DNA of 64,000 nucleotides from an uncultured delta proteobacterium (GTDB taxonomy: Bacteria > Myxococcota_A > Polyangia > Polyangiales > Polyangiaceae): assembly GCA_963826085.1 (NCBI GenBank), contig CAWGVN010000002.1, positions 1-64,000 of the forward strand, in the 5' to 3' direction. A model generated the notes under the pieces. That model worked only from the letters and a program-made list of their open reading frames with translations, was not told the origin of the DNA and searched no databases. The position numbers and the translations under genes were made by a program. Shown here piece after piece: positions 2,029 through 53,467 of the stretch. Positions within the stretch are counted from its first letter, which is position 1, and every line of letters begins with the position of its first letter.

Positions 2029-2880
2029 TTATGCCGCCTGAGGCAGCGAGTGGGTCAACTCCATTTCGACGGGCGTGCGGTAGCCGATGGCAGAATGCCG
2101 CCTGACCGCGTTGTAGTAGTTCTCGATGTAGTCGGCGATGGCGTCGTAGGCCTCGGTCCTCGTCTGGAATGCGCAGCCGTGCACCAGCTCCTTCTTCAGC
2201 GTCGCGAAGAAGCTCTCTGCGACAGCGTTGTCCCAGCAGTCGCCGACGCGGCTCATGCTGGCGTCGATGCCGTGCGCCCGCAACCGCTCGCGGTACTCGG
2301 CGCTGGTGTACTGGCTCCCGCGGTCGGTGTGATGCACGAGCCCAGGCGCAGGAGAGCGACGCATGAGCGCCTGGTCGAGCGCAGCCAGCGCGAGCTCGCG
2401 GTCGAGCGAGCTGCGCAACGCCCAGCCGACGACACGACGCGAGTACAGGTCGAGCAGCACCGCCAGATAGGCCCAGCCCTCTGCCGTCCAGATGTACGTG
2501 ATGTCGCCGACCCAGCCTGCGTCCGGCCGTGCGGTGTTGAAGTTGCGCTCGAGGACGTTGGGCGCGACGGGATGGTGCGCTGCGCGCTCGGTCGTGCGCT
2601 TGAAGCGTCGCTTGGGCCTGCATTTCAAGCCGTCTTCGCGCATCAGCCGCTCGACGCGCTTGCGTCCCACACGATGGCCGCGCGCCTGCAGCTCGGCATG
2701 CACGCGTGGGCTGCCATAGCGCTCGCGATGCTCGCTGTGGATCGCCCGGATTTCAGCCTTCAGACGCTCGCACTGCCGCGCTCGCGCCGACGGCTTTGCC
2801 TTCGTCCAGGCGTAGTAGCCGCTGCGCGTCACCTGCAGCACATCGCACAGCAGCCCCACCGCGAACGTCGCCTTCTCCAC
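2029..2880 (-). CDS. IS3-family transposase OrfB (rve/DDE integrase catalytic domain), expected to be expressed as an OrfAB fusion by -1 frameshifting
   Basis: WVGDITYIWTAEGWAYLAVLLDLYSRRVVGWAL ... HHTDRGSQYTS ... GDCWDNAVAESFFATLKKE ... NYYNAVRRHSAIGYRTPVE gives a DDE triad context typical of IS3 OrfB. Confidence 0.8.
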   Translation of the reverse strand: MEKATFAVGLLCDVLQVTRSGYYAWTKAKPSARARQCERLKAEIRAIHSEHRERYGSPRVHAELQARGHRVGRKRVERLMREDGLKCRPKRRFKRTTERAAHHPVAPNVLERNFNTARPDAGWVGDITYIWTAEGWAYLAVLLDLYSRRVVGWALRSSLDRELALAALDQALMRRSPAPGLVHHTDRGSQYTSAEYRERLRAHGIDASMSRVGDCWDNAVAESFFATLKKELVHGCAFQTRTEAYDAIADYIENYYNAVRRHSAIGYRTPVEMELTHSLPQAA

Positions 2881-2900
2881 GTGGATGAACTCGTAGCGCT

Positions 2901-3206
2901 CTACGAATTTTCCTTCGCGAAGAAGGCTGCCGCTTTTTTTAGGATCTCGCGCTCCTGCTTGAGCCGCGCGTTCTCACGCCGCAGACGCTTCAGCTCCTCC
3001 TCCGGCGTCTCGCCACGCTCCCGGCGCACCTGCTCGCTCACGTCGGCGTACTTCTTCCGCCAACTGTGCAGCAGGTTCTCGGCAACTCCGAGGCTCGACG
3101 CCACGTCGCCAACCGTCCGCTCCCCTCGCGTCTCCATCAGACGCACGGCCTCGCGCTTGAACTCGTCCGTGTACTTCTTCCGCTTCTGCTTCTGCTTCGA
3201 TCCCAT
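2901..3206 (-). CDS. IS3-family transposase OrfA (DNA-binding subunit)
   Basis: MGSKQKQKRKKYTDEFKREAVRLMETRGERTVGDVASSLGVAENLLHSWRKKY... is a classic IS3/IS911 OrfA pattern. The internal Met at 3206 is chosen as the start. Confidence 0.8.
   Translation of the reverse strand: MGSKQKQKRKKYTDEFKREAVRLMETRGERTVGDVASSLGVAENLLHSWRKKYADVSEQVRRERGETPEEELKRLRRENARLKQEREILKKAAAFFAKENS
2934..2941 (-). promoter_or_regulatory. A AAA AAG slippery heptamer (programmed -1 ribosomal frameshift site of the IS3 transposase)
   Basis: The plus strand has a run of seven T (cgcttttttta). On the minus strand this reads CTA AAA AAA GCG in the orfA frame, the canonical A6G motif located in the orfA/orfB overlap. Confidence 0.6.
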
Positions 3207-3263
3207 GGCTTGCTCCCGAGGATACCCTCCTCGCGGGGTGTCCATGAAATCGGGGGAGGCTCA

Positions 3264-6200
3264 CTGGACGGCACGGTCACGCTCGCGTCGCGCTACCACG
3301 CCCTGTCCAGCGACCACTGGGACGCAGCGGACCTCGAGCCCGGACCCCACCAAGGCACCTACGCGAGCGTACGCAAGGACGGGCATGGCCGCACGGTCGA
3401 AACCACCGAGCGCATCCACAGTGGTGGCGCGATCGAAGAGCGGTACGTCGACACCCAGTACCTCCCCACGGGCGAGCCCGAGGTCATCAAGCGGAGGCGC
3501 GGTGGCGACCAGGTCACGCGCTGGATGCGGTACGACAGCCTCGGGCGGATGGTTCTCAACGCCGAGCCCGACACCACGGTCAACTTCAATCCAAGCCCCG
3601 GCGCCGATCCGGACACGATGAAGGCGTGGCGATACGCCTACAACGACAATGGCGACCTCGTCGGCACCAGCGATGCCCGCGGCTGCGGCGACGACTTCTA
3701 CTACGACCGCGCCGGCCGCCTGCAAGCCGAGGACTACTTCCCCTGCACGTCGACACAGCCGCCATACTCGCCCCCGGACTTCTCCACGCTATCCGGCATC
3801 GAGGTCTACTACCTCTACGACCAGCTCCCCAGCGGCAGTGCACCCGCGTGGCTGCAGCCGCCGTCCGGGATCTCCGGCGCGTACACCAAGGGCCGGCTTG
3901 TCGGCGTCTTCGATCGCGCGTCAACGACCTGGAGCAGCTTTGACCAGCGAGGCCGGGTCACGCAGTCGTCGGTCCGCGCGGCGAAGCCCTCGCCGACGGA
4001 TGTGTCGGCAGACTTCGCGGACCGGTACGCCTCGCGTTGGTACACCCGGCGCTTCGCCTTCGACGCTGCTGATCGGGAAGTCGGTGCCACCACTGGCGCC
4101 AAGGTGGCCGAACTCCAGGGGCTTCCCGCCTCCGCCGGAGGCATCGCTGGTGACACGAGCCTGGTCACAACGAGCTACACGTCGCGCGGCACGGTCGAGC
4201 AGGTCGGCGGTAGCTACCAGCGCGACTCCGCCACGCCCAACGTCGGCAACATCCAGCGCACCGCCGACGGGCTCATCACGGAGCTCCACTACGGCGATCT
4301 CGCCGACACCACCACCCACTACAGCTACGACAACCGCCGCCGCCTCAGCAGCGTCCAGACCTACCGCGGCCCCCCCAGCGCCTGGAGCGGAGGCATCAGC
4401 GGCGGCACCAGCTATCAGCCCAGCGCCGATCCCAACGGAGCCCCGCTGACCTTCCAGCTGTTGTTGCAGGACACCGACTACACCTACGACCCCGTCAACA
4501 ACCCCACCGAGATCCACGACTGGCGAAACCCCGCCGAATGGCCCGCAGGCGCCAAGCCCGTCACCCAGAAGATCCAGTACGACGACCTCTACAGAGCCAC
4601 CCGCATCGACTACCAGTACGCAGCCGGCGACGACAGATGGACCGACCCGTTCGAGGACGAGGACTCCAGCGTCAAACCCAGCGATACCCGCCGCGCCAAG
4701 CCCAGCCCCCACGTCGGCTTCGACAACCGCGTCCTCTACCAGAGCTACAAGTACGACTGGCTCGGCAACACCACCGCCACCGATGACGACGCCGGCGGTT
4801 TCTATGATCGCTCGCTCGGCACCGTCGAAAACGGCACGCCCGACGCAGGCCCCTACCAGCTGAAGAGCGCCCAGGGCACCGACAAGGGCACCACCGACCG
4901 CAGCGGCTCGCTGCAGACGATGTACGACGCCGCCGGCAACCTCACGCGCCTCGATGTGCGCCGCGCCGGCCCCTGCCTCCCCAAGGGCTCCAACTGCAAT
5001 GAGCGCTTCGACTATCGCTGGGACGAGGTCGGCCGCCTCGTCGAAGCCCTGCGCTGGGACGGCGCCCCCGGCGACATCACCACCATCCCGCCCGACAACA
5101 CCGCCGACGCCCACCTCCGGTACACCTACGACGCCGGCGACGACCGGGTCGTCAAGGAAGCCATCGACCGCACCGGCCAGTCGCGCTACACCGTCTACCT
5201 CTTCTCGACGCTCGAGCTACGCCGCGCGTCCTGGCTCTCTGACCACTACGGAGACACCGCCGCGACCGAGGTCGCCTACCTCAGCGCGCACGGCGTCACG
5301 CTAGGCCGCCTCTGGTACGAGCCCGATGCGAGCGTGCCCACCAACGGCGCCGCCAAGCTCCACGTCTTCTACCAGCTCGGCGACGCGCTCGGCTCGACCA
5401 GCGTCGTACTCGACCAGGCGACCGGGGAGCTCGTGGAGCGGGGGACGTTCGAGGGATACGGCGCGACGGAGAGCGACTACCGGCCTTCGCGGTGGAACGC
5501 GTACCGCGCCGACAGGAGGTTTACCGGGAAGGAAGAGGACGTCGAGGTTGGACTCTACTACTTCGGCAAGCGGTACCTGAATCCGTTCCTGGGGCGGTGG
5601 GTGAGTGCGGATCCGTTGGCGGTGCACGGCCTGAAGGCCGATCTGAACGCGTACGCGTACGTGCACGGCCAGGTGCTCCAGAACGTGGATCCGCTGGGAT
5701 TGGACCCGACGAACGAGAGCTCCCCGCAGGTCCAGAGCAACGAGGACGCCACCGTCAGCAACGCGTATGGCGAGAAGGTAACGGTGCTCCAGGAGGTCAC
5801 CATCACCGGCTCGCCGGCGAGGAGCCAGGCGGTGCCTGCGCCGGATCCGCTCCCCGTCACGTCCGCCCCGAACAAGGGCGGCGGGGGCGGAGCGTCGGGC
5901 ACGGGCGAGGAGTTCGGGCAGGGTGGGAGCTATGGAACCTACCGGGGCAGAGTCCCTGGCTCCGTGATCCCCACGCCGGCATGGCAGATCCAGCTGCTTG
6001 GCAATGGCCCGAAAAGCTTTGTCGACTTCGCGAAGCTCGCGGGGAAGAACGTCGCAGAGGGCGAGGTAATCGCGGTCGGGTGCTTCTACAACCCAAGCCT
6101 ATGCAAGCTGGTCGGCGGCGCGCTGATGGTCAGCTCGTCGCCGTCGACGCCGACCGCACAGGGAGCAAAGGACCGCGAAGCGCAGTTCTGGTTCGGGGGT

Positions 6201-6587
6201 GCGCTGTTCCTGGGAGGGTCGGCAGCGCCGGAGAGTTCGTCGGAATCGCCTGCAGTCGGCGGCACGACGAGTGCCGGAGAGCGAACGGTCGCCATGGGGC
6301 GTAACATGGCCGACAGAGTCATCCCGTACGCACAAAAAAACGGCTACGACTGGTACAAGGGCACGCCCGACTGGGTGCCGCGAGGCGCGATCGAAAAGCT
6401 CTCGCCGAAGGCACTTGAGAGGACAGACCTTTGGTTCAACAAGCGCTGGATCAATCGCGAGATGCGCACCGGCTCGAGGATCATGGACATCGGCGAACCC
6501 CCCGGCTATCCACCGAGCACCTTCTACGACATGGAGCGTCAGCAGGTCAGCGGGTACTGGAACTACTTCTTTGACTTCCAGCCATGA
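3264..6587 (+). CDS. Rhs-repeat protein, C-terminal portion: YD repeats, Rhs core ending in DPLGL, then an unclassified C-terminal (toxin) domain of about 295 aa
   Basis: YD-repeat-rich translation (YDSLGRMVLN, YAYNDNGDLVGTSDARG, YYDRAGRLQAEDYF, YTYDPVNNPTEIHDW, RYTYDAGDDRVVKE). Rhs core hallmark ...YYFGKRYLNPFLGRWVSADPLAVHG...AYAYVHGQVLQNVDPLGLDP at about 5540 to 5705. The tail after that has no recognizable known toxin fold. The ORF-track start (3066) lies inside the IS, so the frame is taken from the IS end. Confidence 0.75.
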   Translation: MDGTVTLASRYHALSSDHWDAADLEPGPHQGTYASVRKDGHGRTVETTERIHSGGAIEERYVDTQYLPTGEPEVIKRRRGGDQVTRWMRYDSLGRMVLNAEPDTTVNFNPSPGADPDTMKAWRYAYNDNGDLVGTSDARGCGDDFYYDRAGRLQAEDYFPCTSTQPPYSPPDFSTLSGIEVYYLYDQLPSGSAPAWLQPPSGISGAYTKGRLVGVFDRASTTWSSFDQRGRVTQSSVRAAKPSPTDVSADFADRYASRWYTRRFAFDAADREVGATTGAKVAELQGLPASAGGIAGDTSLVTTSYTSRGTVEQVGGSYQRDSATPNVGNIQRTADGLITELHYGDLADTTTHYSYDNRRRLSSVQTYRGPPSAWSGGISGGTSYQPSADPNGAPLTFQLLLQDTDYTYDPVNNPTEIHDWRNPAEWPAGAKPVTQKIQYDDLYRATRIDYQYAAGDDRWTDPFEDEDSSVKPSDTRRAKPSPHVGFDNRVLYQSYKYDWLGNTTATDDDAGGFYDRSLGTVENGTPDAGPYQLKSAQGTDKGTTDRSGSLQTMYDAAGNLTRLDVRRAGPCLPKGSNCNERFDYRWDEVGRLVEALRWDGAPGDITTIPPDNTADAHLRYTYDAGDDRVVKEAIDRTGQSRYTVYLFSTLELRRASWLSDHYGDTAATEVAYLSAHGVTLGRLWYEPDASVPTNGAAKLHVFYQLGDALGSTSVVLDQATGELVERGTFEGYGATESDYRPSRWNAYRADRRFTGKEEDVEVGLYYFGKRYLNPFLGRWVSADPLAVHGLKADLNAYAYVHGQVLQNVDPLGLDPTNESSPQVQSNEDATVSNAYGEKVTVLQEVTITGSPARSQAVPAPDPLPVTSAPNKGGGGGASGTGEEFGQGGSYGTYRGRVPGSVIPTPAWQIQLLGNGPKSFVDFAKLAGKNVAEGEVIAVGCFYNPSLCKLVGGALMVSSSPSTPTAQGAKDREAQFWFGGALFLGGSAAPESSSESPAVGGTTSAGERTVAMGRNMADRVIPYAQKNGYDWYKGTPDWVPRGAIEKLSPKALERTDLWFNKRWINREMRTGSRIMDIGEPPGYPPSTFYDMERQQVSGYWNYFFDFQP

Positions 6588-21223: not shown

Positions 21224-22138
21224 TCAGGCGATCACGTCCGAGAACAATCCGCTGGAGACCCCGTTCGAAAACCAGGTCATGACGCGCGCGGCCGCCTCCG
21301 TCTCGCTGGCCTCTCCGAGCAGCGGAGCGACGCGCTCGAGCGCATCGCCGAGCGATTCGCCCGCGGCGAGCGCTTCGAACAGCGCCGCCATCGCCGGCTC
21401 GAGCTCCATGCGCCATATCGTCGCGCCCGTGCGGTAGACCGCAACGCTGGTAGCCCCAGCGGCGGGAACCGCGGGCGACCCGCCGCTGCGGAACGCCTGC
21501 AGATAGGCGTTCGCCGGATAGTCCAGCTTCAGGATCCGGAGCGAGGGATTGGCGACCAGGCGCGCCTCTCCCCAGGCGTCCGCGGGCACGCGCGCCAGAT
21601 CTTCCGGCGTGATCACGCTCGAGGTCGGCGCGTGGATGACGAGCACGATCGCCCACTCCAGGCTCGCGAGGTCCGCGGCGAAGCCGAGTTGCTCGTCGCG
21701 ACACAGCCCGGACATGTGCTGCCCGAACACGTTCAGGTTCGGCCCGGTCGACGGGAAGCGCGCGATGTACCTCCTGCACAGCGCGTTGAAGCGCTCCTCG
21801 CCGAGGTGGTGCTGGAGCACCGGGTAGTCGTCGGCGAGGCAGTCGACAAGCCGCGCGTGATAGCCGCGGCGGTAGATCTCCAGGCGCTCGAGCGAGCTGA
21901 GCGCTCTGCTGGGCGTCACGAGCGCGGCGGCAGAGCGGTCGTCGACGGGCGCCGGCTCCGACTCCGCCGTGGTGATGATCGCCTCGAACCACTGCTGCTG
22001 CGCGCGCAGGTCGAGCTTTGCCGGGAGCCATGCCGGAGCCGAGCCGTGGCGGGCGTGTGCGGGAACCTCGAGGTGCGCGGGCGTGGCGCTCGCGCGCTCG
22101 TGCGTGCCGATCGAATCCGCGGTGGCCTGCCGCTTCAC
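21224..22138 (-). CDS. DUF2063-family protein (MbnC/HvfC-like partner of DUF692)
   Basis: GTG start overlaps the DUF692 stop (GTGA). The N-terminus has ...LDLRAQQQWFEAIITTAESEPA...ERLEIYRRGYHARLVDCLADDYPVLQHHLGEERFNALCRRYIARFPS, the pattern I recall for DUF2063 N-terminal domains that always follow DUF692 genes. Confidence 0.7.
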   Translation of the reverse strand: MKRQATADSIGTHERASATPAHLEVPAHARHGSAPAWLPAKLDLRAQQQWFEAIITTAESEPAPVDDRSAAALVTPSRALSSLERLEIYRRGYHARLVDCLADDYPVLQHHLGEERFNALCRRYIARFPSTGPNLNVFGQHMSGLCRDEQLGFAADLASLEWAIVLVIHAPTSSVITPEDLARVPADAWGEARLVANPSLRILKLDYPANAYLQAFRSGGSPAVPAAGATSVAVYRTGATIWRMELEPAMAALFEALAAGESLGDALERVAPLLGEASETEAAARVMTWFSNGVSSGLFSDVIA

Positions 22139-22965
22139 GCGCTCGCTCCGACGAACTCGTGCGCCCGGAGCGCCTCCGCGTGGGTCTCCTCGAGGGACGG
22201 GATATCCACGTCCCACTCCAGCAGCACGCTGGCTCCGCCGGCCCGCTTGTGGGCGACGGCGAGCAGCTCCCACACCGGATCGATGACGGGGCCGATGTGC
22301 GAATCGATGATGTGCGTGCCGAAGTCCGTGTGGCCCGCGACGTGGAACTGGATCACCCGCTCGTAGGGTACGGCGTTCAAGTACTCCATCGGATCGAAGC
22401 CGTGGTTCTTCGAGGAGACGTAGACGTTGTTCACGTCGAGCAGGATCGCGCAGTCGGCGTCTTCCGCCAGGCGTCCGAGGAATTCCCACTCGCTCATGCT
22501 GGCGCCGGTAAGCTCGGCGTACGTGGACGGGTTCTCGAGCGCCAGCGGCGCGCCGAGGAAATCCTGGACCTCCCGCACGCGCGCTGCGACGTGCGCGAGC
22601 GCTTCCTCCGTGTAGGGCAGGGGAAGCAGATCGTGCGTGTTCCTGCCGGCGACGCCCGTCCAGCACAGATGGTCGGAGACCCAGAGGGCGCCGACGCGGT
22701 CGCGCAGAGCACGGAGCTCGGCGAGATAGTCGCGATCGAGCGGATCCGTCGAGCCGATGGACAGCGACACGCCGTGCATCACGACGGGATACGCGCCGGC
22801 GATCGCGTCGAGGTAGTCCAGCGGGCGGCCGGACGTGTGCATGTAGTTTTCGCTGATGATCTCGAAGAAGGCGACGGGCGGCCGATCCTCGACGATGCGC
22901 TGGTAGTGCTTCGTCCTCAGGCCGAGCCCGGCTCCGAGATCGGGCAGATCGAATCGCTTCTTCAT
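22135..22965 (-). CDS. DUF692-family protein (MbnB/HvfB-like multinuclear non-heme iron enzyme, TIM-barrel)
   Basis: MKKRFDLPDLGAGLGLRTKHYQRIVEDRPPVAFFEIISENYMHTSGRPLDYLDAIAGAYPVVMHGVSLSIGSTDPLDRDYL...WVSDHLCWTG...LALENPSTY...ILLDVNNVYVSSKNHGFDP...IQFHVAGH are hallmark DUF692 blocks. Confidence 0.85.
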   Translation of the reverse strand: MKKRFDLPDLGAGLGLRTKHYQRIVEDRPPVAFFEIISENYMHTSGRPLDYLDAIAGAYPVVMHGVSLSIGSTDPLDRDYLAELRALRDRVGALWVSDHLCWTGVAGRNTHDLLPLPYTEEALAHVAARVREVQDFLGAPLALENPSTYAELTGASMSEWEFLGRLAEDADCAILLDVNNVYVSSKNHGFDPMEYLNAVPYERVIQFHVAGHTDFGTHIIDSHIGPVIDPVWELLAVAHKRAGGASVLLEWDVDIPSLEETHAEALRAHEFVGASA

Positions 22966-23033
22966 GGGGCTCGAGCCGGACCGCACCGGCGTCTCCGGTG
23001 CGGTCCGTCCCGGATGCGATCAGCCGATGCCGA

Positions 23034-27651: not shown

Positions 27652-28755
27652 TCAGCTCGGGAGCTTGCCCTGGCCGAGCAGGTCGGCCGGAAGCAGCGCC
27701 TTGAGCGAATCGGCGCCGACCACGAGGCGCACCTCCTGGATGCGGCTCGCGATCTCCTTGATGCTCTCGAGCTCCTTCAGGCGCAGCAGCACCGGCTGCT
27801 CCGCCATGACGCGCGCGGTGTTCGCGAGCGAACGGGTCGCGGCCGTCTCCTCGCGACGGAGGATGACGTTGGCCGCGGCCTCCTTCTCGGCCTCGATGAC
27901 GCGGTTGAGAAGAGTCTTCATCTCACCCGGCAGGACGATGTCCTTGAGACCGACGCGCTCGATGCGCACGCCCAGCCGCGCCGCCTTCGGCACCGAATCC
28001 TCCTCGAGGAATCGGGTCAGGGCGTCGCGGCCCTCGAGCAGCTCGTCCAGGGTGACGCCCGAGACGAACTGACGCGCGGCGAGCTGCACGACGAGGTAGA
28101 CCGCATCGCGCACGTTCGAGATCGAGGTCACGACCTTGGCCGGGTCCTCGATCGCGTACTCGACCGTGAGCGTCAGGCGCAGGCTCACCTTGTCACGGGT
28201 GAGCAGCTCCTGACCCACGAGCGACACCTGCTCGCTGCGCATGTCGACGGCCGACAGCTGGACCTCCGCGCCCGGGTGCGACCAGAAGGCGTAGCGACCC
28301 GGCTCGAGCACGCGCTCGAGCTTGCCGCGCACGAACATCAGGCCGCGCTGGTGCGCGATGACCGTGACGAGAGCGTACTCGCTCTTCGGCACGACGGCCT
28401 TGAGCTCATCGGTCAGCTCCGGCATCGGCTCGTCGACGCGGTACACCTCGAGCGATACCTCCGGATCGACAATCCAGTAGCGGTGCGTACCCGGACGCAG
28501 GAACACGGCCGGCACGCCGTCCTCGTACAGGACGCCGCGCTCCAGTGCGCCGAGCGTCACCTCGGCGTACCAGTCGGCCGGCAGGAGCGCGCGCACGGCC
28601 GGCTCGGCACGGAACACGAGCTCCCTCACGTTGAAGCGCACCTCGCCGAGGCGCGCTCCCCACACGCGGTGGCGGCCCGGGCCGAGTGCCCTGAGCGGCA
28701 CACCGTCCTTGAGCACGACCACACGCTCGAACAGACGAACATCATAGTGCTTCAT
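27652..28755 (-). CDS. SPFH/Band-7 (slipin/HflC-like) domain protein
   Basis: MKHYDVRLFERVVVLKDG... with a central SPFH block (LLTRDKVSLRLTLTVEYAIEDPAKVVTSISNVRDAVYLVVQLAARQFVSGVTLDELL...) and a C-terminal coiled-coil. Confidence 0.8.
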   Translation of the reverse strand: MKHYDVRLFERVVVLKDGVPLRALGPGRHRVWGARLGEVRFNVRELVFRAEPAVRALLPADWYAEVTLGALERGVLYEDGVPAVFLRPGTHRYWIVDPEVSLEVYRVDEPMPELTDELKAVVPKSEYALVTVIAHQRGLMFVRGKLERVLEPGRYAFWSHPGAEVQLSAVDMRSEQVSLVGQELLTRDKVSLRLTLTVEYAIEDPAKVVTSISNVRDAVYLVVQLAARQFVSGVTLDELLEGRDALTRFLEEDSVPKAARLGVRIERVGLKDIVLPGEMKTLLNRVIEAEKEAAANVILRREETAATRSLANTARVMAEQPVLLRLKELESIKEIASRIQEVRLVVGADSLKALLPADLLGQGKLPS

Positions 28756-29269
28756 GGCTCGAAGCCTCCAAGCCGGAACCGCCGGCATGCGGGGAGACAC
28801 GGGGTCTCCGTTGATCGAGTTCATCCCTGGGGACCGCGAGCGCGAGCGAGCCCGCGATGAGCGAGTCGCCGCCCGGAGGGCGGCGCAGCGAGTCGCGTCG
28901 GGGGTCCGGGGGCGGTGAGCCCCCGGCGGAGGATTACGGCGGGGGTGGGTGGGTGGGATGGAGAAGGGGGTCCTGTCGGCAGGGTCGCCCGATGGGCTCG
29001 TCCGCACCGCGCCGGCGCGCGCTTCACGAAGCGCACGCGTTTGCGAAGAGAAGAGCGCCATCACGGACCCGGCGCGGCGCGGGAAAGCGGGGCTCCGACG
29101 CAGGGACGGTGGCGGTCGCCGCGACGATGGTCGCCGTCCGTACGAAGGAGCGCTGCTGTCCCGGGCACGCGTCGGGGATCACCGCGAGCGCGCGAGCGCG
29201 CTCCGGCGAAGGGGCTGGCCTGCCGACCGGGACCGGTTTGCGTGAAGACGTTACAGGTCTTCTGGCTTT

Positions 29270-29342
29270 ACGGATTGTCATTCCGTTGCTCTACCTGGCT
29301 GAGCTACATGCGCTCTCGCACATGGCGGGATTCGAACCCGCG
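29270..29342 (-). other. tRNA-Val(GAC)-like locus with permuted/rearranged order: T-arm + 3' acceptor strand directly followed by 5' acceptor, D-arm and anticodon arm
   Basis: Minus strand: GCGGG-TTCGAAT-CCCGC-CATGTGC-G-AGA-GCGCATG-TA-GCTC-AGCCAGGTA-GAGC-A-ACGGA-AUGACAA-TCCGT. The 5' half is a clean tRNA 5' half (anticodon GAC) but no T-arm follows it. Instead a perfect T-arm plus a 7-nt 3' acceptor strand complementary to the 5' acceptor (with G3-U70) precedes it. Confidence 0.4.
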
Positions 29343-29727
29343 GCTGGTCGACATCCCGCGGAACGCACCGGCCCGATACCAAAGGCAAGAACGCATTGCG
29401 CGCAGCCCAGGGCAGGGTGGTGTGCCGTGTGTCGAGATGCCGGAGCGACGAGCGGGAATTGCACCCGCATCCCCGGAGTGGCGCTCCAGGATCCTTCTGG
29501 TTGGACGATCGTCGCAGCGGCCGTCGAGACGCGAACGCGCTCTGGCGCACGCGCTCACGGCGGCGGCGGAAGCAGGAGGAGTCGCACCCCACACCTCGCA
29601 GTGCGCACCCGCTGATGGCGGGGCCCGCCCCTACGGACGGATCTGACCAGCGCCAACAGCGCGAGCACGCAAATCGTCAACGCGCGCATCCGCAGCAGTG
29701 AAACCGCGACGGCGACGCGAGTCAACG

Positions 29728-30343: not shown

Positions 30344-31186
30344 GTGTCGTCGAACCACTTCGCGGCGAAACCGGCTTCCGGTATCGTGCGCGGCGTGTCG
30401 AACAGAAAGACAGCGATTGTCACGGGAGCGTCCAGCGGGATCGGGGCCGAGTGTGCCCGCCTGCTTGCGGGGCGCGGCTACGACGTAGTGATCGTGGCGC
30501 GGCGGCTCAAGCGGCTGGAAGCGCTCGCGAAGGAGATCGAGTCCGCGCATGGCGTCCGCGTGACGCCGATGCAGCTCGACATCTCCGTAGCGGGCGCGGC
30601 AGAGGAGCTGTTCGCGCGGACGGAGGGCGCGGGCATCGCCATCGAGGTGCTCGTCAACAACGCCGGCTTCGGCACACAGGGGTTCTTCCCCGACATCCCG
30701 TGGGACAAGACTGCCGAGCAGCTCCAGCTCAACGTCGTCTCGCTCACCGAGCTCACCCAGCGCTTCACCGCGGCGATGCGCGCCCGCGGCGCCGGCTACG
30801 TGCTGAATGTCGCCTCCATCGGCGCCTACATGCCGGTGCCCGGCTACGCCACCTATGCGGCGGGCAAGGCGTATGTCCGCAACTTCTCCGAAGCGCTCGC
30901 CCACGAGCTGCGCGGCAGCGGCGTCCAGGTGTGCTGCCTGTGTCCGGGGCCGACCGAAACCGAGTTCATCGCCGTATCCGGGCAAAGCGTGCCCGCGTGG
31001 CAGAAGATCGCGTTCATGAGCGCGGGGCGCTGCGCGCGCATCGGCATCCGCGCGCTCTTCAGCGGGCGCCGCCTGGTCGTGAGCGGCTTCGTGAACACGC
31101 TGATGATGTGGTCGCTGCGCTGGTTGCCACGGCGCCTCGTCACCTGGTCGGCGGCCCTTTTCATGGAAGGGCCGCGCCCCGCGTGA
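30344..31186 (+). CDS. SDR-family oxidoreductase
   Basis: TAIVTGASSGIGAECARLLAGRGYDVVIVARR...VLVNNAGFG...YAAGKAYV is the Rossmann TGxxxGxG plus YxxxK catalytic motif. Confidence 0.8.
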   Translation: MSSNHFAAKPASGIVRGVSNRKTAIVTGASSGIGAECARLLAGRGYDVVIVARRLKRLEALAKEIESAHGVRVTPMQLDISVAGAAEELFARTEGAGIAIEVLVNNAGFGTQGFFPDIPWDKTAEQLQLNVVSLTELTQRFTAAMRARGAGYVLNVASIGAYMPVPGYATYAAGKAYVRNFSEALAHELRGSGVQVCCLCPGPTETEFIAVSGQSVPAWQKIAFMSAGRCARIGIRALFSGRRLVVSGFVNTLMMWSLRWLPRRLVTWSAALFMEGPRPA

Positions 31187-31296: not shown

Positions 31297-31827
31297 CTAG
31301 GAGATGCCTGCGCGGGCAGTGCCCGCACAGAAGTCGCGCCACTCGATCGGCGCCGTCGTCGGATCGACGAGCGGAGCCGTGAGCGGCAGTGAGGCCGGGC
31401 GCCACGGCGGCTTCAGGGGCCGCATGCGCGCCTCGTCCGGTGTCTTGTCTGCCTTCCGCGCGTTGCACGGATAGCAGGCGGTCACGATGTTCTCCCAGAC
31501 CGTTCGGCCGCCGCGCGAACGCGGCAGCACGTGGTCGTAGGTGAGCTTCGACATCGGCAGCCGCGTACGGCAGTAGGCGCAGGTGAAGTTGTCGCGCAGG
31601 TAGACGTTGAAACGCGAGAACTTCACGCCACGCTTCACTGCCGCGAGCCGCCCCTTGAGGCGGATCACCGCCGGCAGCCGTATGACCGTGGACGGCGAGC
31701 GGACCTCGTCGTCGTAGTTGGCGATCACGTCCACCTTCTCCAGGTAGACGAGCGTGATCGCCTCCTGCCACCCGATCACCTTGTGCGGGAAGTACCACGG
31801 AGTGAGCACGAGCGTTCGCGCGGTCAT
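31297..31827 (-). CDS. HNH endonuclease-domain protein
   Basis: ...FTCAYCRTRLPMSKLTYDHVLPRSRGGRTVWENIVTACYPCNARKADK is the HNH motif (C-x2-C ... H-N...N ... C-x2-C). Confidence 0.75.
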   Translation of the reverse strand: MTARTLVLTPWYFPHKVIGWQEAITLVYLEKVDVIANYDDEVRSPSTVIRLPAVIRLKGRLAAVKRGVKFSRFNVYLRDNFTCAYCRTRLPMSKLTYDHVLPRSRGGRTVWENIVTACYPCNARKADKTPDEARMRPLKPPWRPASLPLTAPLVDPTTAPIEWRDFCAGTARAGIS

Positions 31828-32198
31828 GGGTCACCTGCCTTGTCTTGGGGTTTCTGTGTGTTCTCCTTTCGCTGGGCCTCCCTGCCTGGAGTTGAACCAG
31901 GAAACCCGGTTTCGTAGACCGGGGCCTGCGTCCGGCAGGACAGGGAGCGGGTGTGGCGCAGCGAACGTGCTTGCGCCGATGGCGCCCGCGAAGGGAATCG
32001 CACCCTCCTCACTGGATCGACAATCCAGCCGCTTCACTAGATGCGTACGCGGGCTGCCGGGCAGCCGTGGCGGGCTGCCCGTGGGAAGCGCGCGCACCAA
32101 CGCGTTGGCGGTGATGGACGCGCTTCCCGTCGCACGGATTGTCAGAGAACAGGGCGCACCACGGCGCCGACCGCACAGGGCCTGGTCCTGATCCGGAC

Positions 32199-49161: not shown

Positions 49162-52146
49162 ATGCGCGTGCCGGGCCAGTGGCCGCGTATGCGCGCTTGG
49201 CCCATCGCTCTGACGGTCGTGCTAGCGGCCTGTGGAGGTCCGCGGGCGACGCACTTCCCGCCGGCAACACCAAAGACACCCGCGACAGCGTCCGACGCGC
49301 GTGCTCCGCAGCAGACGGCGCCGGTCGTCGATCCGCTCGCGCCTCTGCCACCCGGGGCCGTTGCTCGCTGCGGCACGGCGCGCCTGCGCTTCCTGTCGAA
49401 GCCCATGTCCGCGTCGATCGACAATCGCGGCCGGATCCTTTCGATAGAGGACGTCGACGGACAGCGCGTGCTGCGCGACGTGGTCAAGGGAACGGTCGTC
49501 AGGACGCTTCCCGATTCGGCAGTAACCCAGCTGACCCCGGATGGAACCCGGCTGGTGTCGATCCGCCCAGGCCAGCACCAGGGCCAGCTCGTGCTGGTCG
49601 TCTCGCCGGCATCCGGCAAGGAGTCGGGACGCGTCGGGCTCGAGCTGCCGCCGGAGCCGGAGCAGCGGGCGCCGGGCGTTGTCGATCGCCTGCAGATCAC
49701 CGCCGACAGTCGTCGCGCCCTGGTGATCGCCGGCACGACCTTGTTCGCCGTTGCGCTCGACACGCCGCGCATCGAATGGAAGAAGACGCTCCAGGGCGAC
49801 AGCATCGAAGCGCTGAGCGGCGACGGAACGCGAGCGCTGGTGCTTACCCGGTTCCGGAAGGAAAACCGGGGAATGCTGGGCGTCCTTGCCGCGACCAATC
49901 GAAAAGGCGTGCTCTCCCTCGTCGACGCGCAGAGCGGCCGCACGCTGCGCGCGCTCGGCACGCCCAAGGCTCCGTTCGAATACTCGGACGCGGCGCTCTC
50001 GCACGACGGGACTCGCGCGTTCATCGGCAAGGTGGATGGCCTGGATGTGATGGACGAAAAGACCGGCACGCTGCGCCCGTTCGTCCACATCGTGGCTCAC
50101 GGTCTCGGCGGGCTATCGGTGGGCCGCGGTCGGCTGCTGGTCTCCCCCGACGACAGCCGCCTGACGTACCAACAGCACGGCGTGTTCCTGATCGACGCGA
50201 AGAGCGGCCGCCTGCACAAGTTGCCGGAGAAGGCGAGCCCGCTCGCGTTCTCTCCGGACGGGCGCCTGCTGCTCTACCGCGTCGTCAGTGCGGCGCGCGT
50301 GCAGGGCAAACACTACCGCGTTCCTGCGGGGCACCGCGGGCCGGTCACCACGCTCGCCTTCACCGACGGCGGACGGCGTCTGGTCTCGGCGGCCGGCTCG
50401 GTGCGCACCTGGGATTTGCGGACTGGAGCCCCGCTCGGAGCGAGGGACCTGGACGGCGTCGACGTGCGCGTTGCCGCTTCCCCGCGCGGAGGTACGGCCA
50501 TCGCGGCGGGTGACCTGGTGCTGGCGCGCGGCGGTCGAACCCTCCGCATCGGGGCGCCCGATCGCCTGTCGCGGATCGCGTTCGCGCCCGACGGCGAGCT
50601 GTTCGTGGGAACGCTGAACGAGTTCAGCGCGTTTCGCTCGCACGCCGCAGGGGTCAGGTTGCAGCCCGGCCGCACGCTGTTCCGGCTCTCGCCCGAGGGT
50701 CGCACTCTGGCCTCCGCGAACGTCGGCGACGTGGTCGGCTTGGCCGTCGCCCCTCACGGCAAGCGCATCGCCGTCTACGCGCGGAGCTTCGCCTTCAACC
50801 GACAGCGCGGCAGCGTCGAGCTGCGCGATGCGGCGACGCTCGACCGGCTAGAGCCGCTGCCCGGGCTCGAGCGGTACAACACGGCGCTCGCGTTTGCGGG
50901 AGCAGGGCGGCTGATCGCGTCGAGCAGCGCCGAGGGCGCCGCCCTGTACGAACTGGCGTCGCACAGTATCACGCGGCGCTTTGCGCTCGGCCACTGCTGC
51001 GGGGCGTTGGCGGTGTCGCCGGACGGCAAGCTGTTGGCGCTCGGCGCCGACGCCGACGTGCAGCTCTGGGATATCGACCAGCGCGAGCTCCGTGGCGTGT
51101 TCCGTGGTCACTCCGGCGATGTCGATGCGCTGGCGTTTTCTCCGGATGGAAAGCTGCTCGCGTCGGGCAGCCGCGACACCAGCGTGTTGGTCTGGGACAC
51201 CGGCAGAGCTCCCCCTCCGCCGCATCCGCCAGCGCCGGCGATTGACGAGCCCGCCGTCCCGTCGCTCGCCGCGCTTGCGCGTGGCCGTCGCGGCGAGCGC
51301 ATCGCGATGCTGTCGCACGGCAAGCTGGCGGCTCCAGGCGAGAAGCTGCCGCGGCTGCCGGCAGGCCTGCTGGCGGTGTCGCGCGGCCCGGCCGCGAGCT
51401 GCGTCATCACCGCTGCACGCAAGGTGATGTGCTGGGGCGGCACGCTGGGCTCGAAATCGACGGCACTGCGACTTGTACCGGGCGTTTCCAATGCGCATCG
51501 CATCGCGGTCGGCCTGGCCTACGCCTGCGCCATCGACGGCGCCGGCAGGCTGAGCTGTTGGGGCTCGCTCGGCGGAGCGGTCAGCGACCAGGCGCCTGCG
51601 ACGCTTGCGCTGCCGGGGAAGGTCCGCGACATCCAGATCGGTCTCGCGCACGCGTGCGCGCTAATCGACAGCGGCCATGTGCTGTGCTGGGGCGACAACA
51701 ACGCGGGACAGCTCGGCATCGGCATTGCGCCCTACGCGCGCACTCCCACCGAGGTTGTGGGGATCTCCGACGCCGTGGCGATCGCGGTCGGCCAGCAACA
51801 CAGCTGCGCGCTCGGCCATGCGGGCAGCGTGCTGTGCTGGGGCGACAACGGCTCGGACCAGCTCGGCGACGGAACGGGGGTCGCCAGCCGTGCGCCGGTT
51901 CGTGTGCGCGGCCTGCGCCCCGCTTCTTCAATCGCTGCGGAGCAGAGCGCCACGTGCGCCGTCGTCGATGCCCGCGTCATGTGCTGGGGGCGACTGGCCG
52001 GTTTCCGCCGCAGCGAGGTGCACTTCGTCGAGCCCACCGCGGTCGACGCTCTGGGCAAGGCCTCGACGGTCCGCCTGGTGGCCGATCACGTCTGCAGCGA
52101 AGACGGCGCGGCGGTCCGATGTGCGCGCTTCCGTCGCCGGCTATAG
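49162..52146 (+). CDS. WD40/beta-propeller + RCC1-repeat lipoprotein
   Basis: Signal and lipobox (IALTVVLAACGG). The middle region has WD40-like repeats (FRGHSGDVDALAFSPDGKLLASGSRDTSVLVWD; GHRGPVTTLAFTDGGRRLVSAAGSVRTWDL). The C-terminal third has RCC1-like repeats (CWGDNNAGQLGIG; CWGDNGSDQLGDGT; HSCAL/HACAL). Confidence 0.7.
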   Translation: MRVPGQWPRMRAWPIALTVVLAACGGPRATHFPPATPKTPATASDARAPQQTAPVVDPLAPLPPGAVARCGTARLRFLSKPMSASIDNRGRILSIEDVDGQRVLRDVVKGTVVRTLPDSAVTQLTPDGTRLVSIRPGQHQGQLVLVVSPASGKESGRVGLELPPEPEQRAPGVVDRLQITADSRRALVIAGTTLFAVALDTPRIEWKKTLQGDSIEALSGDGTRALVLTRFRKENRGMLGVLAATNRKGVLSLVDAQSGRTLRALGTPKAPFEYSDAALSHDGTRAFIGKVDGLDVMDEKTGTLRPFVHIVAHGLGGLSVGRGRLLVSPDDSRLTYQQHGVFLIDAKSGRLHKLPEKASPLAFSPDGRLLLYRVVSAARVQGKHYRVPAGHRGPVTTLAFTDGGRRLVSAAGSVRTWDLRTGAPLGARDLDGVDVRVAASPRGGTAIAAGDLVLARGGRTLRIGAPDRLSRIAFAPDGELFVGTLNEFSAFRSHAAGVRLQPGRTLFRLSPEGRTLASANVGDVVGLAVAPHGKRIAVYARSFAFNRQRGSVELRDAATLDRLEPLPGLERYNTALAFAGAGRLIASSSAEGAALYELASHSITRRFALGHCCGALAVSPDGKLLALGADADVQLWDIDQRELRGVFRGHSGDVDALAFSPDGKLLASGSRDTSVLVWDTGRAPPPPHPPAPAIDEPAVPSLAALARGRRGERIAMLSHGKLAAPGEKLPRLPAGLLAVSRGPAASCVITAARKVMCWGGTLGSKSTALRLVPGVSNAHRIAVGLAYACAIDGAGRLSCWGSLGGAVSDQAPATLALPGKVRDIQIGLAHACALIDSGHVLCWGDNNAGQLGIGIAPYARTPTEVVGISDAVAIAVGQQHSCALGHAGSVLCWGDNGSDQLGDGTGVASRAPVRVRGLRPASSIAAEQSATCAVVDARVMCWGRLAGFRRSEVHFVEPTAVDALGKASTVRLVADHVCSEDGAAVRCARFRRRL

Positions 52147-52189
52147 AAGAAGTCTTGATCCCCATGGATGCCGACCTACTGTGTCATCC

Positions 52190-53467
52190 GTGGCGGACAG
52201 GGAAAGCCGGATCTCGTTCAAGTCGGTGTTCATCGCGGTGTTCCTGGGCACGGCGCTGGTGGTGGCGGCGATGTTCGTCAACAGCCGCCGCCCCGCGGTC
52301 GAGCGCGGGCAGCCGACTCCGCAGCTCGTGGAGGCCACCGGCAAGTGCGCCGAGTGCCACCGTCACGAGACGTTGGCGATCGTCCACCAGTACGAGATGA
52401 GCCGGCACGCCCGGCAGGGCGTCAACTGCCTCGACTGCCACCGCGCCGCCCCCGGTCAGAAGACCCAGGAGCACAAGGGGTTCACCATCGCCGTGAGCCT
52501 GACCGCGAAGAACTGCGCGCAATGCCACGCGGCGGAATACCGGCAGTACGAGCGCAGCCGGCACGCGGCGCCGGCGTGGGCCGCGGTCAACGGCGCGGAG
52601 GATTTCTCGAAAGGACAGCTCGCGGAGGGCGAGCGCTACCACAAGGGTTGGGTCGACCGGAAACCGAACGCGCTGGCCATGCTGGAGGGCGATGCGGCGA
52701 TGCGGCGGGGCTGCGACAGCTGTCACAGCATCGGCAAGCCCAATGCGGACGGCTCGCTCGGCACCTGCACCGACTGCCACTCGCGTCACGACGCGTCGGT
52801 GGCCACGGCCCGGCTGCCCACGACTTGCGGCCAGTGCCACATGGGGCCGGACCACTCGCAGATCGAGATCTACGACGAGTCGAAGCATGGCGTGCTGTTC
52901 AACGCCGAGCGCGCCAGCATGAACCTCGGGGCATTCCCCGACCGGCTGACCACCAAGGACATGCCCGTGCCGACCTGCGCCACCTGCCACATGAGCGGCC
53001 TGGAGGGGATGGGGGTCACTCACGACATGAGCGAGCGGCTCTCCTGGTACCTGTTCGAAGCCGTCTCCAGGAAGCGGCCGAACTATCTCCAGGGCCAGAC
53101 CAAGATGAAGGAGGTCTGCACGAAGTGCCACGCGTCGAGCGGCGTGAAGCGCTTCTACGACAACGCCGAACGGGTCGTGCAGGACACCAACGCGAAGGTC
53201 CAGAGCACGCTCGCGATCGTGGACGGCTTGAGGAAGGACGGGCTGCTCACGCCCAAGCCCTTCGACGAGCCCATCGAGTTCATGGCGTTCGACCTGTGGC
53301 ACTACTTCGGTCGCACCACCAAGCACGGCGCCTTCATGGGAGGCGCGGACTTCGTGCAGTGGCACGGCAACTACGAGCTGTTGCGACACAAGGTGCAGAT
53401 CGAAGCGGCGGCTCGGGAAATCCGCGCGCGCGCTGCGAACAAGCCGGAGCCGCATGCGACTCCCTGA
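52190..53467 (+). CDS. octaheme c-type cytochrome (eight CxxCH motifs) with N-terminal membrane anchor
   Basis: CxxCH motifs: CAECH, CLDCH, CAQCH, CDSCH, CTDCH, CGQCH, CATCH, CTKCH. N-terminal hydrophobic helix FIAVFLGTALVVAAMFV. GTG start, 52181 or 52190. Confidence 0.75.
   Translation: MADRESRISFKSVFIAVFLGTALVVAAMFVNSRRPAVERGQPTPQLVEATGKCAECHRHETLAIVHQYEMSRHARQGVNCLDCHRAAPGQKTQEHKGFTIAVSLTAKNCAQCHAAEYRQYERSRHAAPAWAAVNGAEDFSKGQLAEGERYHKGWVDRKPNALAMLEGDAAMRRGCDSCHSIGKPNADGSLGTCTDCHSRHDASVATARLPTTCGQCHMGPDHSQIEIYDESKHGVLFNAERASMNLGAFPDRLTTKDMPVPTCATCHMSGLEGMGVTHDMSERLSWYLFEAVSRKRPNYLQGQTKMKEVCTKCHASSGVKRFYDNAERVVQDTNAKVQSTLAIVDGLRKDGLLTPKPFDEPIEFMAFDLWHYFGRTTKHGAFMGGADFVQWHGNYELLRHKVQIEAAAREIRARAANKPEPHATP

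Follow-up and report, generated by a model that had tools for sequence, protein, structure and literature searches.

In this study, we analysed a 64,000-nucleotide (nt) stretch of DNA from an uncultured delta proteobacterium (assembly GCA_963826085.1, contig CAWGVN010000002.1, positions 1 to 64,000), hereafter called the window. On its minus strand, a tRNA-like element lies 5′ of a gene for a slipin—a Band-7/SPFH protein of 367 amino acids—and is probably the RNA partner of that protein. The original prediction had described positions 29270-29342 as a T-arm, a 3′ acceptor strand, a 5′ acceptor strand, a D-arm and an anticodon arm, in this order, and every one of these parts was confirmed on the minus strand. 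They form only the core, as the conserved structured element spans at least about 29380-29222. The locus is composed of the following features.

29380-29360 (-): conserved 5′ leader together with the closing stem’s 5′ strand, GGTATCGGGCCGGTGCGTTCC (minimum free energy (MFE) fold and RNAalifold)
29371-29364 (-): motif CCGGTGCG inside the leader, also given as CCGGUGCG
29359-29342 (-): linker from the closing stem to the T-arm, CGCGGGATGTCGACCAGCC; C29342, at position 48, is the partner of G15
29341-29325 (-): T-arm, GCGGG-TTCGAAT-CCCGC (sequence, and alignment to the Rfam tRNA and YrlA models)
29324-29307 (-): closed acceptor hairpin with a stem of 7 base pairs (bp), consisting of the 3′ strand CATGTGC (29324-29318), the loop GAGA (29317-29314) and the 5′ strand GCGCATG (29313-29307)
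29304-29288 (-): D-arm, GCTC-AGCCAGGTA-GAGC, preceded by T8 and A9 (29306-29305)
29286-29270 (-): complete anticodon-like arm, ACGGA-ATGACAA-TCCGT, with a 7-nt loop, preceded by an A
29262-29244 (-): extra hairpin, GAAGAC-CTGTAAC-GTCTTC, 6 bp with a 7-nt loop, placed like a class-II variable arm
29243-29222 (-): closing stem, 3′ strand, ACGCAAACCGGTCCCGGTCGGC (MFE fold and RNAalifold)
29203-29186 (-): GC-rich hairpin directly 3′ of the RNA, GAGCGCGC..GCGCGCTC
27652-28755 (-): slipin gene, 367 amino acids

The permuted cloverleaf and its covariation

The topology of the element is that of a circularly permuted cloverleaf, in which a loop closes the acceptor end and the termini of the RNA separate the variable region from the T-arm. 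The acceptor strands, which had been predicted to pair with G3-U70 among the pairs, form seven pairs joined by the GAGA loop. As also predicted, reading the minus strand of the window reveals no second T-arm 3′ of the anticodon arm, and the 6-bp hairpin is found there instead. No conventional intact tRNA is present at this site either: ARAGORN made no tRNA call at the element, and the Rfam tRNA model, which mistakes the extra hairpin for a T-arm, scored 26.8 bits, under its gathering score of 29.

This arrangement is not a chance one, because the pattern running from the T-arm to the D-arm has one match in the window and none in 100 shuffles, the region folds with z = -3.0 as compared to shuffled controls, and the structure is conserved with covariation. 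The loci compared are those of slipin homologues with 88% to about 55% identity, with gene tables covering 5-7 kb on each side. Covariation was scored over the 21 core pairs of the four helices, in an unfitted MAFFT alignment of eight loci. In these loci, 98.2% of the core-pair cells are paired, and 11 of the 21 pairs have changed on both sides. None of 500 shuffles came up to these figures, and slid controls were 26-49% paired. When three distant loci were added, 97.7% of the cells of the T, acceptor and D helices were paired among the 11 loci, with 34 double-change cells. The acceptor hairpin, which spans the supposed junction, is the most covarying helix (compensatory pairs, 5/7), and compensatory pairs are also present in the anticodon-like arm (3/5) and the D-arm (2/4). 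The T-arm is paired in 100% of the cells of the 11 sequences, with double changes at two pairs. RNAalifold independently recovers the four helices, together with a stem by which the 5′ and 3′ flanks close the structure. The element is a conserved structured RNA.

The acceptor stem has seven positions at every locus, with no more than one mismatch (in L259 and L263), and its loop is 4-55 nt long. In L395 (6600-6665), a 55-nt insertion consisting of two similar hairpins (CCCAAACACGTGTTTGGG and CCCCAAACACTTGTTGGGG) lies in the loop, like a small repeat element. The G15:C48 pair is replaced by A15:U48 in L263, which is the alternation of the Levitt pair, and this change fits the tRNA-like L shape that the RNA would be expected to adopt.

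A covariance model of the core, R1, scores the family at 78-95 bits, canonical YrlA RNAs at 40-60 bits and the junctions of adjacent tRNAs below 47 bits; it finds exactly one copy per Myxococcota locus. Pattern scans of genome and metagenome contigs for the T-arm-to-D-arm order returned mostly adjacent ordinary tRNAs, with no family members among the matches listed. In phage contigs, two viral pattern scans returned closed-acceptor hairpins in large number that had no anticodon hairpin; a closed anticodon hairpin combined with the lack of a downstream T-arm was seen in none of them.

Around the core, the extra hairpin shows compensatory changes by eye (GAAGAT/ATCTTC in L001, GAAGGC/GCCTTT in L003, CGACA/TGTCG in L004 and AACACT/AGTGTT in L259), and is missing from L262. 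The closing stem pairs GGGCCGG (29374-29368) with CCGGTCC (29236-29230) in the MFE fold, and the long-range helix of RNAalifold joins alignment columns 30-43 with 211-223. In L003, L004 and L259, the closing helix is formed instead by the linker homologue GACCTGG and CCAGGTC. The leader blocks ATCGG and GTG.GT.CC are invariant across five loci. GC-rich hairpins similar to that at 29203-29186 follow the RNA in relatives, and this hairpin, which has no U-tract, may act as a terminator or attenuator.

The slipin gene and the other neighbours of the RNA

Which gene accompanies this RNA? The protein encoded at 27652-28755 matches Pfam Band_7 (E = 3e-25) and is 100% identical to P0001 (367 amino acids); PADLOC and NCBIfam returned nothing specific for it. 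Judging by the names of its homologues, the window derives from the Polyangiaceae (Myxococcota). The RNA lies 5′ of the slipin gene, on the same strand, at all 12 Myxococcota loci: the window, L001-L004, L259, L262, L263 and L395-L398. The distance is 265-540 nt at 10 of these loci, and four genes lie between the RNA and the slipin gene in L259. In L395-L398, the permuted RNA is located 265-295 nt 5′ of the slipin gene, and its anticodon region is divergent and extended.

In the Polyangiaceae, the RNA is the final element of a tRNA array. Arrays of 7-24 tRNAs are present in L002 (seven), L004 (eight), L259 and L262 (24). An HNH endonuclease gene accompanies the arrays in L001, L002, L262 and L263, and L262 also encodes RtcB and RbfA. 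These arrays match the L-type tRNA arrays with HNH genes described in 2021 (PMC8421152), in that the Polyangiaceae RNA ends such an array, and that 24 tRNAs, RtcB and HNH occur together in L262. In contrast to the L-arrays, the RNA and the slipin gene also occur without an array: neither ARAGORN nor Rfam finds a tRNA gene within 7 kb in L395 and L396. Conversely, model R1 finds no permuted RNA in the HNH-linked phage arrays L384-L386. We thus dropped the idea that the RNA is a component of L-arrays. The array-free L395 and L396 and the RNA-free phage arrays thus leave the slipin gene as the constant partner. The linkage to the slipin gene is obligate and independent of tRNA arrays.

The leader of about 470 nt between the RNA and the slipin gene (28756-29220, minus strand) contains blocks that are conserved in L001-L004, such as GATGCCCGGCGCGTGCCCGGG and GGACGGCGACCATCGTCGCGGCGACC, and L395 and L396 share the similar CGGTGATCGCCCGG. 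These blocks may represent further RNA structure or a small open reading frame (ORF).

Such a position could also be that of a cis element: a processing signal for RNase P or RNase Z, or a stabiliser, between the tRNA-array transcript and the slipin mRNA, or a regulatory leader of the slipin gene. The same-strand spacing at 10 of the 12 loci, the conserved blocks of the leader and the terminal position in the Polyangiaceae arrays would all suit this role. However, the RNA occurs without an array in L395 and L396, four genes intervene in L259, and the GC-rich hairpin follows the RNA. Moreover, the full tRNA tertiary signature with Levitt covariation exceeds the needs of a cleavage signal. We therefore regard a cis element as unlikely.

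The genes noted on the 5′ side of the RNA are as follows.

29444-29515 (-): non-canonical tRNA-Gly(GCC)-like gene, with the T-loop UGCAAUU (G at 55), C33 and a D-loop lacking GG; Rfam tRNA model, 40.1 bits
29850-30338 (+): GreA/GreB-like gene
30344-31186 (+): short-chain dehydrogenase gene
31297-31830 (-): HNH endonuclease gene
31875-31947 (-): Arg(ACG)-like tRNA gene, called by ARAGORN and under the Rfam threshold
31983-32054 (-): tRNA-Asp gene with an odd UGC T-loop, GGGUGCGAUUCCC

The tRNA-Gly-like gene lies directly 5′ of the RNA, and is missed by ARAGORN in the window. It is conserved in L001 (5354-5427), L002 (5224-5297), L003 (4627-4699) and L004 (5196-5268), and C33 is present in the window and L001. 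It resembles the staphylococcal non-proteinogenic tRNA-Gly, in which GUGC replaces GTPsiC. The same UGC T-loop is present in the tRNA-Asp gene, in a tRNA-Ala of L004 (4502-4572) and in a tRNA-Glu of L262 (3587-3660), and these arrays seem to harbour a non-standard tRNA sub-class. Of the long tRNA array of its relatives, the window keeps only a remnant, namely the HNH gene and three odd tRNA-like genes. The GreA/GreB-like gene and the dehydrogenase gene, which separate the HNH gene from the tRNA-Gly-like gene, look like an insertion that broke the array, as L002 has tRNA genes in that interval.

Between the tRNA-Gly-like gene and the RNA, an invariant block, GGCACAC...CCTGC (29426-29412, minus strand), resembles a sigma-54 promoter. 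Its GG-N11-GC spacing is one base over the canonical N10. No sigma-70 promoter was predicted at the locus. Elsewhere in the window, genes at 22135-23019 (-), 2029-2973 (-), 2943-6587 (+) and 51665-53467 (+) include those for a RiPP (ribosomally synthesised and post-translationally modified peptide)-modifying enzyme of the MbnB/TglH/ChrH type, an IS3-family transposase adjoining an RHS-repeat protein, and a multi-haem cytochrome.

Relation to tRNAs and YrlA RNAs

Does the RNA decode? The triplets at the anticodon position of eight loci are GAC, GUC, UGU, GAU, UUU, AUU, UGU and GUU—seven different ones—while U33, A37-A38 and all four stems are kept. The window has GAC as compared to UGU in L002, at a slipin identity of 88%, and the triplet takes three of the seven differences between their cores. 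Since the triplet differs in nearly every relative, the RNA is not a tRNA-Val, and the tRNA-Val(GAC) identity of the original prediction falls. The unconstrained “anticodon” indicates, therefore, that the RNA is read by its shape and not by a codon. Identity for alanyl-tRNA synthetase through G3-U70 was rejected as well, as this pair is not conserved.

Permuted tRNA genes occur in Cyanidioschyzon merolae, prasinophyte algae and some archaea, where they mature through the bulge-helix-bulge (BHB) endonuclease, a circular intermediate and a ligase. To our knowledge, bacteria lack the BHB splicing endonuclease. The window RNA shares with the algal and archaeal genes the 3′ half placed before the 5′ half, the short linker and the complementary acceptor strands. 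In contrast, those tRNAs decode with conserved anticodons, whereas the anticodon of the window RNA is unconstrained and its partner is a slipin gene. A bacterial precedent for a permuted tRNA-like gene is the two-piece transfer-messenger RNA (tmRNA), encoded by the permuted ssrA of alpha-proteobacteria and some cyanobacteria, in which the acceptor-T piece comes first and a loop is excised. The tmRNA has no D-stem or anticodon arm, but has a tag reading frame, G3-U70, an encoded CCA and the partner SmpB; the tag frame, the encoded CCA and SmpB are not those of the window RNA. The predicted circularly permuted tRNA was thus right in its topology and not in its kind: the partial match to YrlA and the linkage to the slipin gene point to the bacterial tRNA-mimic non-coding RNAs (ncRNAs).

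Nevertheless, the RNA could be a genuine permuted tRNA, which RNase P cuts 5′ of G1 within the acceptor loop and to which, after trimming on the 3′ side, CCA is added, giving a two-piece tRNA that the acceptor and closing stems keep joined and that is aminoacylated and translates or donates its amino acid. The constancy of the acceptor stem, beside a loop so variable in length as if it were dispensable, would fit this possibility, as would the canonical anticodon loop (7 nt, U33, A37) and the N-CCA encoded directly after the 3′ acceptor strand in L003 and L263. In addition, the M. smegmatis YrlA has, like the window RNA, an acceptor stem of 7 bp; RNase P cuts this YrlA in vitro, and its cleavage and CCA addition take place in vivo (Chen et al. 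2014, PMC4201824). However, the anticodon evolves as fast as the freest D-loop positions among close relatives, the discriminator base varies (G, C, A and U), G3-U70 is present in only three of the eight loci, and most loci encode no CCA. The anticodon loops of distant members are also non-canonical, with 5 nt in L402 and divergent or extended forms in L395-L398. A translating or amino acid-donating tRNA is accordingly hard to credit.

Next, we compared the RNA with YrlA. The best non-tRNA match in Rfam is YrlA (RF02553), at 38.4 bits against a gathering score of 69, and covers model positions 28-81, that is, the T-arm, the acceptor and the D-arm. The relatives score 38.6-43.9 bits, with 40-44 bits in L001, L002, L004 and L262. 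Both RNAs have the T-arm, the closed acceptor-like hairpin and the D-arm in this order, the tertiary-pair signature with the alternation of G15:C48 and A15:U48 (PMC4201824), and a long stem in which the 5′ and 3′ ends pair. In YrlA, however, there is no anticodon loop, and distant 5′ and 3′ segments form an open anticodon stem that runs into the Ro60-binding stem, whereas the window RNA has a closed hairpin of 5 bp and 7 nt.

The window RNA might be an ordinary Ro60-binding YrlA, with Rsr encoded elsewhere in the genome. The Rfam match and its extent would favour this, but the score stays under the gathering threshold, the anticodon arm is a closed hairpin, and the Ro60-related traits are missing. 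YrlA has GNCGAAN0-1G near its 5′ end, the presumed Ro60 contact (PMC4201824), and no match to it is present in 29342-29400 on the minus strand; the nearest sequence, GUCGAC, is not conserved in L001 and L002. YrlA is encoded within about 4 kb of the TROVE gene, on the same strand, and the window RNA is not: Ro60/TROVE was not found in the scanned ORFs of the window or in the gene tables of the relatives. As a control, 17 YrlA-type closed-acceptor loci without an anticodon hairpin were picked from the genome-contig scan, and their 102 flanking ORFs contained TROVE (nine), RtcB (seven), RtcA (seven) and Band_7 (one). We consider an ordinary YrlA very improbable.

Finally, a rearrangement scar at a tRNA-Val att site, or a decaying, partly deleted pair of tandem tRNAs—suggested by the gene order, in which the 3′ half of one tRNA abuts the 5′ half of another, and by the abutting tRNA-like RNAs 5′ of the Photobacterium slipin gene—can be dismissed, as the proposed comparison with the relatives shows an element kept in 12 loci over slipin identities of 88% to about 55%, in exactly one copy per locus, and with compensatory changes in all four helices, above all in the junction-spanning acceptor hairpin.

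Slipin-linked RNAs and the proposed role

The slipin protein was compared by tblastn with plasmid and secondary-replicon records, which yielded near full-length homologues with 34-41% identity, and a tRNA-like RNA is located 5′ of each of these slipin genes. In Subdoligranulum (Firmicutes), the layout, at about 250 nt 5′ of the slipin gene, is the same permuted one, in which the acceptor (7 bp) and the anticodon-like hairpin are both closed. In Burkholderia cenocepacia, a stem-enclosed T-arm is followed by a cloverleaf in the normal order, the anticodon arm of which is tipped by a GAAA tetraloop, and in Photobacterium two abutting cloverleaves precede the slipin gene. The cloverleaves of these two genera have the normal order and an open acceptor, whereas the window RNA is permuted and closed. 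In Citrobacter (L400), the order is rtcR, a sigma-54-like promoter, a T-arm with a hairpin, the slipin gene and a nucleotidyltransferase gene; TGGCAC-N5-TGGCA, at about 4516-4532 beside rtcR, has the proper spacing. The region upstream of the slipin-nucleotidyltransferase pair of E. coli is present at full length, unannotated, in 1629 of 5426 complete genomes (about 30%), and model R1 detected no tRNA-like core in 4283-4811 of L399 (E. coli STEC639). No Rfam family covers the slipin-upstream RNAs.

The abutting cloverleaves of Proteobacteria suggest a tandem origin: the permuted form may have arisen from tandem tRNA-like RNAs, the first of which contributed the T-arm and 3′ strand, and the second the 5′ strand, D-arm and anticodon arm joined to them. 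The tandem tRNA copies with deletions that had been put forward for the window are, judging from the Photobacterium and Burkholderia layouts, plausible as an origin and wrong as its present state.

A further shared trait is the (C)CGGUGCG motif, which is found in the window (29371-29364), L401 (about 4549-4558), L402 (about 2595-2604), L403 (about 2596-2605), L105 and L051. It lies near the 5′ side of slipin-linked tRNA-like RNAs from four phyla and also occurs in actinobacterial YrlA-type RNAs, and its recurrence suggests that it may be a shared protein-binding site.

What, then, is this RNA? We propose, with good though not full confidence, that it is a Band-7-associated tRNA-mimic ncRNA, which belongs to the class of the band 7-associated tRNAs (b7a-tRNAs) and of YrlA near Band-7. 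Wang et al. 2018 (10.1101/312249) summarise the prediction of Burroughs and Aravind (2016), by which RtcB adjoins, in some bacteria, a gene for a Band-7 protein along with a “band 7-associated tRNA” of strong likeness to an authentic one. They also note that YrlA occasionally adjoins Band-7, and both points are given without experimental validation. The likeness to this class lies in a predicted tRNA-resembling ncRNA that adjoins a Band-7/slipin gene. RNA-repair genes lie nearby in some genomes: RtcB in L262, and rtcR and the nucleotidyltransferase gene flanking the slipin gene of Citrobacter. In the window RNA, all four arms are present and covary, but they are permuted, and the acceptor is closed.

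Several points weigh against this proposal. The comparison with the b7a-tRNA class follows the summary in Wang et al. 2018, and the inclusion of the permuted form in the class is presumed. The assignment is drawn from the genes, and the RNA ends, the processing and the slipin binding are all predictions. Most Myxococcota loci have no adjoining RtcB or nucleotidyltransferase gene, and neither RtcB nor other RNA-repair genes were found in the scanned ORFs of the window or in the Myxococcota loci apart from L262. The link to RNA repair therefore comes from L262, the enterobacterial rtcR-slipin locus and the literature. The partners in the closing stem differ between sub-lineages, and its covariation in RNAalifold is weak. 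Lastly, the distance of about 470 nt from the window RNA to the slipin start codon leaves room for a cis role.

As a Band-7-associated tRNA mimic, the RNA would have a length of about 160 nt and be composed of the leader, the T-arm, the closed acceptor hairpin, the D-arm, the anticodon-like arm, the variable arm-like hairpin and a 3′ strand that pairs with the leader. With its acceptor end closed, it would not be chargeable as transcribed. It would act in trans, or as a processed leader, and serve as a cofactor or decoy for the slipin scaffold. The slipin oligomer and the RNA could together present a tRNA-like surface to the enzymes that recognise tRNA, such as an RtcB-type ligase, nucleotidyltransferases and anticodon nucleases. 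By analogy to the Y RNA with Ro60, the role would be in the response to RNA or tRNA damage, in which the RNA is probably a cofactor or decoy.

A processed version of this tRNA mimic can also be imagined, and we consider it improbable. In this version, as for the YrlA of M. smegmatis, the acceptor loop would be lost through RNase P cleavage and trimming, and CCA would be added, leaving a complete, chargeable two-piece tRNA with a free anticodon. It might be a decoy for anticodon nucleases, or an aminoacyl donor or mis-decoder that the slipin cage sequesters or presents. If true, the two-piece form would be the first example in bacteria of a split or permuted tRNA whose acceptor end is functional.

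The locus provides a covariation-supported structure and a two-part module of RNA and slipin that persists without RtcB, Ro60 or tRNA arrays. It also offers a series for comparison, from the permuted RNAs of Myxococcota and one Firmicute to the normal and tandem cloverleaves of Proteobacteria, in a class of slipin-upstream RNAs that tRNA finders and Rfam currently miss. The Band-7/slipin proteins are widespread membrane scaffolds, the bacterial roles of which are mostly unassigned, and for one subfamily of them we propose a dedicated, tRNA-shaped partner.

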